Source of the DNA: Candidatus Hermodarchaeota archaeon
GTDB lineage: Archaea > Asgardarchaeota > Lokiarchaeia > Sigyniarchaeales > SOKP01
Assembly: GCA_048885525.1 (NCBI GenBank)
Contig: JBHLLP010000032.1
Coordinates: 1-41,744, forward strand
Reading direction: 5' to 3'
Length of the DNA stretch: 41,744 nt
Shown here piece after piece: positions 23,700 through 41,744 of this stretch (its first letter is position 1; each line of letters opens with the position of its first letter). The position numbers and the translations under genes were made by a program. Under the pieces are notes generated by a model that had not been told where the DNA came from, ran no database searches, and worked only from the letters and a program-made list of their open reading frames with translations.

Positions 23700-24065
23700 A
23701 TGAAGCTCTTAGCTGAAAAGAATATGAAAATTGAAGAGATCACAATTTATTTAAATCTTTTTAAATTATATAAGAGTTTTTTGTTATTAATTTCTGATCA
23801 CCCAAATATGGGGATAGGGAACGTAACTTTAGGGAGTCCTCCTACAATTGAAGGATTAAAACCATTAACAGCATCTTATAGTTTGTTTGGTGTAAATAAA
23901 AAATTGATAAGTACTATTATAGCTGAAAGAGCTTCAAATATACTTAAAGCTCCTGTATTACTCCTTTTATTTTTAAAGAATAAAAAGAAGGAGGAGGAAA
24001 TATTAAAACCATTAGTAAATTTTCTGAATATAACTTTAGAGGAAACTCTTGAAAAATTAAAATAA
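23700..24065 (+). CDS. Proteasome assembly chaperone 4 (PAC4/PSMG4)-like protein
   Basis: SFLLLISD..IGNVTLGSP..SYSLFG..IAERASNILKAPVLL parallels the PAC4 pattern (SLFLWV..L.NL.VAM..STSLLG..LAQRLA..K.VFV). Recognised by eye only. Confidence 0.6.
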   Translation: MKLLAEKNMKIEEITIYLNLFKLYKSFLLLISDHPNMGIGNVTLGSPPTIEGLKPLTASYSLFGVNKKLISTIIAERASNILKAPVLLLLFLKNKKKEEEILKPLVNFLNITLEETLEKLK

Positions 24066-24227
24066 TGCAGGGAGTGGGATTCGAACCCACGAAGAGCTAT
24101 CTCACCGGATATCTCATAAATTATTATGTTAATCAACGGATAATATAATAATCAGATCTTGAGTCCGGTTATTTAGGATTAATATCCAAAAAAGTCCGGC
24201 ACCGTTGACCAACTTGGTTATCCCTGC
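24066..24227 (-). tRNA. tRNA-Leu(CAA) with two introns: 32/33 (24163-24193, 31 nt) and 37/38 (24111-24157, 47 nt)
   Basis: GCAGGGA/TCCCTGC-A acceptor, long variable arm, GTGGG-TTCGAAT-CCCAC. Removing two BHB introns (CCGG/CCGG and CTCA/TGAG helices) gives CCGGA-CTCAAGA-TCCGG. Confidence 0.9.
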
Positions 24228-24343
24228 TTGAAAAGTTTTTAAATATTTTATATATTCATTATACAAATTTATTATTTTAATTTTTTTAAAATTTTTAAAA
24301 AATACCAAAAAAGATAATGCTAAAAGTCTTGTCTAAATCGAAA

Positions 24344-33611: not shown

Positions 33612-33763
33612 GCCTCGGTAGCTCAGCAAGGTAGAGTACCGCTTCGGTGTGCCTAAAGCACCCGGCTAAGGTAATTTTGATTTACCTCCGGAAGTTAACC
33701 GGGCGGTCGCATGTTCGATTTTCCATCTAAATAATAGGTGGATCGGAAACCATGCCCGGGGCG
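33612..33763 (+). tRNA. tRNA-Asn(GTT) with three introns: 22/23 (33635-33656), 33/34 (33668-33693), 59/60 (33720-33749)
   Basis: Spliced: GCCTCGG TA GCTC AGCAAGGTA GAGC A CCCGG CT GTT AA CCGGG CGGTC GCATG TTCGATC CATGC CCGGGGC G. Each intron is a hairpin with a 4-bp helix and 3-nt bulges; G73 discriminator. Confidence 0.88.
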
Positions 33764-41379: not shown

Positions 41380-41481
41380 TGGACCTGACGGGAATTGAAC
41401 CCGTGACCTCTTGAATGCAAGTCAAGCGTTGTAGGTAGGTACAACAACGAACCCAACAATCTTCCACTGATCTACAGGCCC
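41380..41481 (-). tRNA. tRNA-Ala(TGC) with a 30-nt intron at 24/25 (41429-41458)
   Basis: GGGCCTG/CAGGTCC-A with G3:U70, CTTGA-CTTGCAT-TCAAG, TTCAATT T-loop; intron removal restores the GATC/GATC D-stem. Confidence 0.88.
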
Positions 41482-41670
41482 CGCTTTTTTACATTTTTTA
41501 TTTCTATTAAAAACATTAATAGTTAAAATCTTTTGCTTTTTCAAAGTGAATAATTAGTATTTTCTCAAAAAAAAAAAATTTTATGAAAATATAGTAATAT
41601 AATAGAAAATTAAGGTAAAAGTTAATTAAGAACTCACCTAAGAAAAGATTTATTTCAAATTTAATATTAA

Positions 41671-41744
<74 letters not shown>

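Follow-up and report, generated by a model that had tools for sequence, protein, structure and literature searches.

A tRNA-Leu(CAA) gene of an Asgard archaeon with a five-nucleotide anticodon exon between two introns and predicted splice motifs that exclude each other

Introduction

How does a cell make a tRNA whose anticodon lies in an exon of only five nucleotides, with an intron on either side? The question is raised by a locus on the minus strand (24227-24066) of the window, by which we mean the whole 41,744-nt stretch of DNA analysed here; it is one whole contig of a 3.58-Mb, 99% complete genome of an Asgard archaeon, Candidatus Hermodarchaeota archaeon. The locus encodes a class II tRNA-Leu(CAA) with a 162-nt precursor body. 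A sequence-only reading had noticed that the heptamer CCGGACT stands at the end of exon 1 and again at the end of intron 1. Is the second copy a duplicate of the exon? Can the two splice motifs exist at the same time? If not, which intron leaves first? The answer that we regard as likely is a two-intron gene whose bulge-helix-bulge (BHB) motifs are mutually exclusive and from which intron 1 is removed first, cleavage at the sites and the order of removal both being deduced from the analyses below. A literature search on tRNA micro-exons gave nothing relevant.

The gene and its parts

Rfam family RF00005 matches positions 24066-24227 on the minus strand with 43.6 bits, leaving 81 nt of the anticodon loop unaligned. 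When the three exons are joined they give 84 nt, which ARAGORN recognises as tRNA-Leu(caa) with a regular class II cloverleaf. This cloverleaf has a long variable arm, A73 and a leucine anticodon, together with a 3-bp D-stem and an extended D-loop; CCA is not encoded. The gene was thus placed correctly, with its coordinates and motifs, when it was first read (Rfam, and ARAGORN on the spliced product), and the introns at 32/33 and 37/38 around a 5-nt anticodon exon are borne out by the sequence, by ARAGORN and by relatives that have no intron 1. It is the one tRNA-Leu(CAA) locus found in the host genome, which is 99% complete. The parts, all on the minus strand, are as follows.

24246-24254, minus strand: AT-rich, TATA-like stretch about 19-27 nt upstream of position 1, a putative promoter element (sequence reading only)
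24066-24227, minus strand: the whole tRNA-Leu(CAA) gene (Rfam RF00005, and ARAGORN on the spliced product)
24194-24227, minus strand: exon 1, tRNA positions 1-32, ending in CCGGAC (27-32) (sequence; 0 of 34 sites vary)
24202-24213, minus strand: D-loop and 3' strand of the D-stem, GUUGGUCAACGG, partner of the intron-2 box
24196-24199, minus strand: exon strand of the BHB1 central helix, C27 C28 G29 G30, which is the 5' strand of the anticodon stem (pairs with 24165-24168)
24163-24193, minus strand: intron 1, 31 nt, non-canonical position 32/33, ending in CCGGAC (precisely absent in five relatives; 21 of 31 sites vary)
24176-24187, minus strand: inner hairpin of intron 1, GGAU/AUCC (sequence)
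24165-24168, minus strand: intron strand of the BHB1 central helix, CCGG, intron positions -6 to -3 (pairing kept across variants)
24158-24162, minus strand: micro-exon UCAAG, that is U33, the anticodon C34 A35 A36, and G37 (invariant in all 59 distinct homologues parsed)
24111-24157, minus strand: intron 2, 47 nt, canonical position 37/38, ending in UGAGAU (sequence; 20 of 47 sites vary; kept where intron 1 is absent)
24128-24139, minus strand: box CCGUUGAUUAAC within intron 2, complement of the D-arm (predicted ensemble, shuffles, conservation)
24113-24116, minus strand: intron strand of the BHB2 central helix, UGAG, with partners C32 (24194) and U33-A35 (24160-24162)
24066-24110, minus strand: exon 3, positions 38-73, with A38, the anticodon-stem 3' strand UCCGG, the long variable arm, the T-arm, the 3' strand of the acceptor stem and A73 (sequence; 0 of 45 sites vary; ARAGORN cloverleaf)
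24052-24065, minus strand: T-runs immediately past A73, a putative archaeal terminator (sequence reading only)

A scan for bacterial-type terminators found no hairpin terminator at the T-runs.

Relatives of the gene were sought by BLAST in the genus, the family and the order. Within the genus, 39 of 54 genomes have it, as do five more genera of the family. The 59 distinct homologous sequences that were parsed, 54 of which bear intron 1, are the basis of the comparisons below.

The splice motifs and their support

What would a splicing endonuclease see at these junctions? In the motif predicted for intron 1 (BHB1), C27-G30 pairs with intron positions -6 to -3 (CCGG/CCGG), and this central helix, referred to here as H1, is flanked by the bulges A31 C32|U and A C|U33 (ACU/ACU), each of 3 nt. 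Outside it lies a helix of G26:C34 and U25:A35, and inside it a UU/AA helix leads to the intron hairpin. The second motif (BHB2) would form after the joining of C32 to U33. It combines the anticodon stem (27-31:39-43) with a central helix, H2, between C32-A35 and UGAG (CUCA/UGAG), and its bulges AG|A and AU|A (AGA/AUA) again have 3 nt each. Both introns therefore have a central helix of 4 bp, with 94-100% of cells paired among 54 relatives, and in the predicted geometry of both the 3-nt bulges lie on opposite strands. Removal of both introns leaves the cloverleaf that ARAGORN finds in the spliced sequence. The flanking helices are less uniform: for BHB1 the outer helix has at least 2 bp in 49 of 54 relatives and the inner one in 41 of 54, while the inner helix of BHB2 reaches at least 2 bp in 33 of 54 and is a single pair in the window, which makes BHB2 a relaxed motif.

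How well are the pairings kept? The 4-bp central helix of BHB1 is paired in 94-95% of cells in 50-54 relatives, with one or two mismatches in 11 of the 54 distinct relatives, and the variant intron tetramers CUGG, UCGG, CCAG and CUAG retain pairing with exon positions 27-30. A 50-sequence alignment (A1) has 92% of cells paired for intron 1, a share that falls to 16-48% if the partners are slid. At pair 28:-4 it shows CG in 42 sequences, UA in five and UG in two, and the pair between intron position 2 and intron position -7 is UA in 28 and CG in 13. The covariation of BHB1 on A1 was reached by none of 500 shuffles, nor was that of the 4-bp helix by itself on a second alignment (A2). That the two CCGG copies form the central helix of BHB1, as was first read from one sequence, is thus what the family suggests as well. 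The real anticodon stem and H2 are paired in 99.8% of cells, with C28:G42 replaced by U:A in seven sequences. Shuffle tests of this kind overstate the support, since the relatives share ancestry. RNAalifold on a MAFFT alignment gave no consensus structure for the intron-1 region; the inner hairpins align out of register, and a bulged 4-bp helix scores poorly.

Duplicate or complement?

CCGGACT does occur at the ends of both exon 1 and intron 1, as was noticed at the outset: the 41.7-kb window holds two copies only (24193-24199 and 24162-24168, both on the minus strand), with 0.46 expected by chance. Why should an intron end in a copy of the exon before it? The tetramer within it looks like a copy of positions 27-30 because CCGG is palindromic, so that its complement has the same letters. 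With a CCGG stem the intron tetramer can pair equally well with 27-30, as in BHB1, or with 40-43, where it would stand in for the 5' strand of the anticodon stem (the substitute stem, or pseudo-stem). The two roles separate in eight sequences whose stem is CUGG/CCAG (U28:A42). In three of them, from genus g16, the intron carries CCAG, the exact complement of CUGG; the substitute stem then has two mismatches and position -1 is A. Three others, from g21, carry CUAG, giving H1 three Watson-Crick pairs and one G-U, and the substitute stem one mismatch. The remaining two carry CUGG, with two G-U pairs in H1 and a perfect substitute stem. Covariation of the substitute stem was matched by 145 of 500 shuffles, that is, there is no excess. 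These comparisons argue that the selected interaction is the BHB1 helix, and that the 'duplicate' mostly follows from the intron's complementarity to a palindromic strand. The sequence-only reading had also held that the intron's copy can take the place of the 5' stem strand. On paper this is so in the host genome, where the fit is perfect; as a selected feature it falters on the mismatches of g16 and g21 and on the shuffles, and across the family it is not conserved. All 54 distinct bearers of intron 1 have A at intron position -2, and 49 of them have C or U at -1. As sequences with a broken substitute stem keep the A at -2 too, its conservation needs another reason.

Could the intron have arisen by duplication all the same? 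A weaker variant of the idea has intron 1 born by local duplication beside the CCGG palindrome, which would have made an instantly spliceable BHB, and lets the 7-nt repeats explain its repeated precise loss. The comparison of intron end and exon gave it no positive support, and a duplication origin was rejected here, as the likeness to the exon stops at the tetramer and positions -7 to -9 vary (UAA, AAG, UAG). More generally, a direct repeat at the end of an intron need not imply duplication, as a palindromic exon strand in a BHB gives one automatically. A tRNA-Asn(GTT) gene in the same window (33612-33763, plus strand) has an intron at 33/34 in which CCGG of the exon (28-31) pairs with CCGG at the intron end. 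The palindromic stem is used there as in Leu(CAA), and the bulges, CUA and AAG, are not duplicated.

Order of splicing

Can both motifs be present on one transcript? The partner of positions 27-30 is intron 1 (-6 to -3) in one fold and 40-43 in the other. Likewise, BHB1 takes up C34 and A35 in its outer helix and BHB2 in H2, which in addition requires C32 beside U33. With these nucleotides shared, the two modelled motifs cannot coexist, and splicing would be sequential; the original proposal of exclusive folds holds up to this point. As to which intron goes first, the models suggest that intron 1 is probably removed before intron 2. ViennaRNA, which was used for the folding predictions, gives the full precursor of the window a probability of 0.94 for H1, 0.04 for the pseudo-stem and 0 for the real stem, so that the folding of the pre-tRNA, proposed earlier as a check, favours H1 over the real stem. 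H1 is already present in nascent 5' fragments of 70-125 nt. Deleting intron 1 from the window sequence brings the real stem to 0.62 and H2 to 0.58, and deleting intron 2 first gives a pseudo-stem of about 0.8 and an H1 of 0.04, a predicted trap. Among the relatives the thermodynamic prediction of the order is inconsistent: H1 beats the pseudo-stem in 34 of the 54 full precursors and loses in nine, and the real stem reaches 0.5 in only 20 of the 54 intermediates lacking intron 1. The order stays an inference, since the predictions are noisy and BHB2 is often poorly predicted.

The proposed sequence of events would run as follows. BHB1 would fold first, on the nascent transcript, and be cut and ligated. 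The removal of intron 1 would join C32 to U33 and release the 5' strand of the anticodon stem; the stem and BHB2 would then form, and intron 2 would leave last. With one motif at a time, the 5-nt exon would always be attached to a larger piece and never be free. A hazard is also predicted. If the real stem closed, CUUU/UGAG would offer three of the four helix pairs, and a cut there would skip the micro-exon and yield a Leu-bodied UUU tRNA.

What if intron 2 left first, or the order were free? The CCGGAC of intron 1 would then replace positions 27-32, pair with 39-43 and supply the equivalent of C32; BHB2 would be cut with intron 1 still in place, and intron 1 would be removed later. The window sequence would allow it, as the pseudo-stem (5 bp) and the matching pseudo-H2 (4 bp) are perfect. 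The bases at the intron end, A at -2 in 54 of 54 and C or U at -1 in 49 of 54, are also those that the pseudo-stem and H2 need, and in nine of 54 relatives the pseudo-stem is the favoured fold. However, the lineages with a CUGG stem break the pseudo-stem (two mismatches in g16, one in g21) and keep H1, the covariation of the pseudo-stem stays within the shuffles (145 of 500), and the A at -2 persists where there is no intact pseudo-stem to explain it. The intermediate without intron 2 would moreover be trapped, with an H1 of 0.04 for the window sequence; only two of 54 homologues have it at 0.5 or above. We therefore think this course improbable. In the g16 form, judged from the pairs that its sequence allows, only the order 1-then-2 is possible.

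Where are the junctions?

The position of the first cut is a question of its own, for every junction inside CCGGAC|U yields the identical spliced sequence in the window. Could the cut lie elsewhere in the 7-nt repeat, for example at 30/31 or 31/32, with the same product? The strict geometry of 3-nt bulges fits 32/33 alone, and it was from this geometry alone that the junction had first been assigned. Comparative data now support 32/33 too. The first CCGGAC is invariant, and in the second three of the six positions vary. The base that follows the first copy is T or A among relatives and is therefore not U33. In the relatives the second copy ends in U or A (-1) and carries A at -3 or -4, bases that junctions further upstream would move into the mature stem or position 32. 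Taken together, the alignments would place the junction at 32/33, or at most between 30/31 and 32/33, independently of the BHB geometry, and another register seems to us quite unlikely.

That the 31 nt are an insertion is seen from relatives that lack precisely these nucleotides. Five sequences (L042, L193, L197, L200 and L202) have no 31-nt insert and keep intron 2. They come from three genomes of the genus (G012, G043, G061) and two of genus g22 (G135, G139), and read CCGGACUCAAG.

Might the gene simply be decaying, its inserts unspliced and UUG read by tRNA-Leu(UAA)? The helices of BHB1 are indeed weakened in some relatives (CCGA, ACGA, CAGG). Against this, the exons are invariant while the introns diverge: in 14 distinct relatives of the same lengths, none of the 84 exon sites varies (0 of 34, 0 of 5 and 0 of 45), compared with 21 of 31 sites in intron 1 and 20 of 47 in intron 2. 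Compensatory changes have accumulated in the anticodon stem and the BHB1 helix, at least six genera have kept the gene, and the 99% complete genome yielded no second Leu(CAA) locus. A gene out of use is, on these grounds, highly implausible.

Gain and loss of the introns

When was intron 1 acquired? Six genera of the family have it, and in the neighbouring family the members that were sampled have intron 2 only, a distribution that suggests a gain in the ancestor of the family. The five genomes without it are scattered, which points to repeated precise loss, since their intron 2 closely resembles that of bearers (L193 compared with L038). Deletion across the 7-nt direct repeats, or recombination with an intermediate copy from which intron 1 had already gone, would fit. 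Direct repeats of 7 nt flanking intron 1 would in themselves permit a precise deletion. No parsed genome keeps intron 1 without intron 2. One genome, G091 of genus g17, lacks both; its Leu(CAA) gene (L236) has the stem AUGGA/UCCAU and an insertion past the anticodon arm.

In 11 relatives there is a third intron, in the T-loop. It measures about 30 nt in L036, L037, L039-L041, L185-L187, L192 and L235. In L039 a register of 59/60 fits a UUCG/CGAA helix built from the palindromic TTCGAA of the T-loop, and the intron is flanked by an 8-nt direct repeat, TTCGAAAA. The same register in L036 retains three of the four helix pairs.

Annotation of the locus and of its surroundings

How would such a gene appear to an annotator? 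Run with its defaults, ARAGORN reports no tRNA anywhere in the window, and in intron mode it mislabels the gene as a tRNA-Lys(ttt) with one 78-nt intron. This last model (ARAGORN -i, c[24066,24227], intron i(40,78)) can be set aside as next to impossible and is refuted by the relatives: although CUUU/UGAG would form three of the four helix pairs with the real stem closed, the body is of the leucine type (class II, long variable arm, A73), the supposed UUU sits in intron 1 and is replaced by UCU, AUU, UUA and others in relatives, and those without intron 1 read CUCAAGA.

The locus is hardly alone. Rfam counts 24 tRNAs in the genome and ARAGORN -i 34, several of them dubious. So few tRNAs at 99% completeness mean that many tRNA genes of this genome are probably hidden by introns. 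As standard tools miss or mislabel Leu(CAA), codon-reading inventories of Lokiarchaeota-type genomes that are built with them will be wrong. On contig C56 of the host genome (2789-2946, plus strand), ARAGORN mislabels as tRNA-Pro(agg) a gene that resembles tRNA-Leu(GAG) and contains two inserts, one within or close to the anticodon stem and one in the variable region. Both ends of the window belong to rRNA genes of the minus strand: the 5' end of a 23S rRNA gene opens the contig (1-160), the 3' end of a 16S rRNA gene closes it (41670-41744), and a tRNA (41380-41454, minus strand) lies directly downstream of the 16S gene. The two rRNA genes are thus about 41.5 kb apart and therefore unlinked.

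The splicing enzymes

Does the host have the means to cut such motifs? EndA is encoded by two paralogous genes that share 33% identity, each with the N-terminal and the catalytic Pfam domains. One of them lies on contig C2, at 50308-50904 of the plus strand, and the other on contig C9. The protein of 198 aa retains the Tyr, His and Lys; that of 205 aa has Ser in place of the catalytic His. The solved chains closest to the 198-aa protein are 3p1z_B, 3ajv_B and 2zyz_B, which we take to be catalytic subunits of crenarchaeal heterotetramers. The ligase RtcB is encoded as well, so the gene content includes both an EndA of the kind expected for non-canonical or relaxed motifs and an enzyme to join the ends. 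Two papers link the two-subunit EndA to the cutting of non-canonical and relaxed motifs (PMC5829648; PMC4090602). For the host, a similar substrate range may be inferred from the subunit type.

A box in intron 2 complementary to the D-arm

Intron 2 has a further feature. The box CCGUUGAUUAAC (24139-24128) is complementary over 12 bp to the D-loop and the 3' strand of the D-stem (24213-24202). The resulting helix dominates the predicted ensemble, with a pairing probability of about 0.95, and the duplex has a z of -5.7 against shuffled introns, with values of -3 to -6 in most relatives. The core CGTTGA (CGUUGA in the RNA) occurs in 56 of the 59 distinct homologues, across six genera, and is kept also where intron 1 is missing and where intron 2 is only 27 nt long. 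The 12-mer is unique in the host genome. Complementarity to the D-arm as a general trait of tRNA introns in this genome was considered and rejected: the 12 other introns called by ARAGORN have z values from -2.1 to +1.2. Among the homologues there is no compensatory change for the helix, and the U20-to-C variants are uncompensated, so the case for it consists of conservation and complementarity.

What might the box do? Introns can encode box C/D guides, in which a C box (RUGAUGA) and a D box (CUGA) flank a guide of 10-12 nt. A guide of the tRNA-Trp type was rejected for this box, as no D' box follows the 12-nt complement and the CUGA at the 5' end of intron 2 is not conserved. Rfam families of snoRNAs and sRNAs gave no match at the locus at E <= 1. 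A tentative and, in our view, rather doubtful idea drawn from the predicted folds is that the box acts as an antisense clamp on the D-arm, which would keep the body unfolded and unchargeable until the last intron leaves. If that were true, the clamp would be a device for timing or quality control, in a gene where incompletely spliced or mis-spliced forms (such as the Leu-bodied UUU tRNA with the micro-exon skipped) could be dangerous. No description of an intron box that pairs with the D-arm was found in the literature searched.

Relation to known systems and significance

How new is all this? Sugahara et al., in 2007 and 2008, and Tocchini-Valentini, in 2009, are said to have described tRNA genes with several introns in Thermoproteales and the ordered processing of their BHB motifs. 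The shared features are several BHB introns per tRNA gene, at non-canonical as well as canonical positions, removed (in Leu(CAA), as proposed above) in an order set by refolding, and an EndA of two subunits and broad specificity. The Leu(CAA) gene differs in its Asgard host, a member of the Promethearchaeota of Lokiarchaeota type, in having both introns in the anticodon loop, 5 nt apart, and in a first motif that uses a palindromic strand of the anticodon stem, so that the intron end mimics the exon.

A second parallel comes from nuclear tRNA genes of Cyanidioschyzon merolae, in which BHB motifs are processed in an orderly and sequential way, with the one in the anticodon arm always last (PMC3728597). 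This agrees with the order proposed for Leu(CAA). C. merolae, however, is a eukaryote, a red alga, and its motifs are each able to fold independently (PMC3728597), whereas those of Leu(CAA) are exclusive by sequence. Closer to the host, tRNA genes of Asgard archaea have been found to contain several non-canonical BHB introns, which gene finders miss or mislabel and which have been gained and lost repeatedly (PMC11291895; Goswami et al. 2026, 10.64898/2026.10.13.758758). These traits are shared with Leu(CAA); those studies centre on Atabeyarchaeia, Freyarchaeia and Jordiarchaeia (PMC11291895; 10.64898/2026.10.13.758758). In a word search of the preprint (10.64898/2026.10.13.758758), Lokiarchaeia, Promethearchaeia, palindromes, direct repeats and the order of removal are not mentioned.

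The locus is thus real and conserved, a further example of the multi-intron tRNA genes known from archaea, and probably one with ordered splicing. What is added here is a covariation test across the family, a correction of the 'duplicate', the pattern of losses, the annotation trap and the D-arm box. With natural variants that have one, two or three introns and stems that are palindromic or not, Leu(CAA) is a compact test substrate for ordered splicing.
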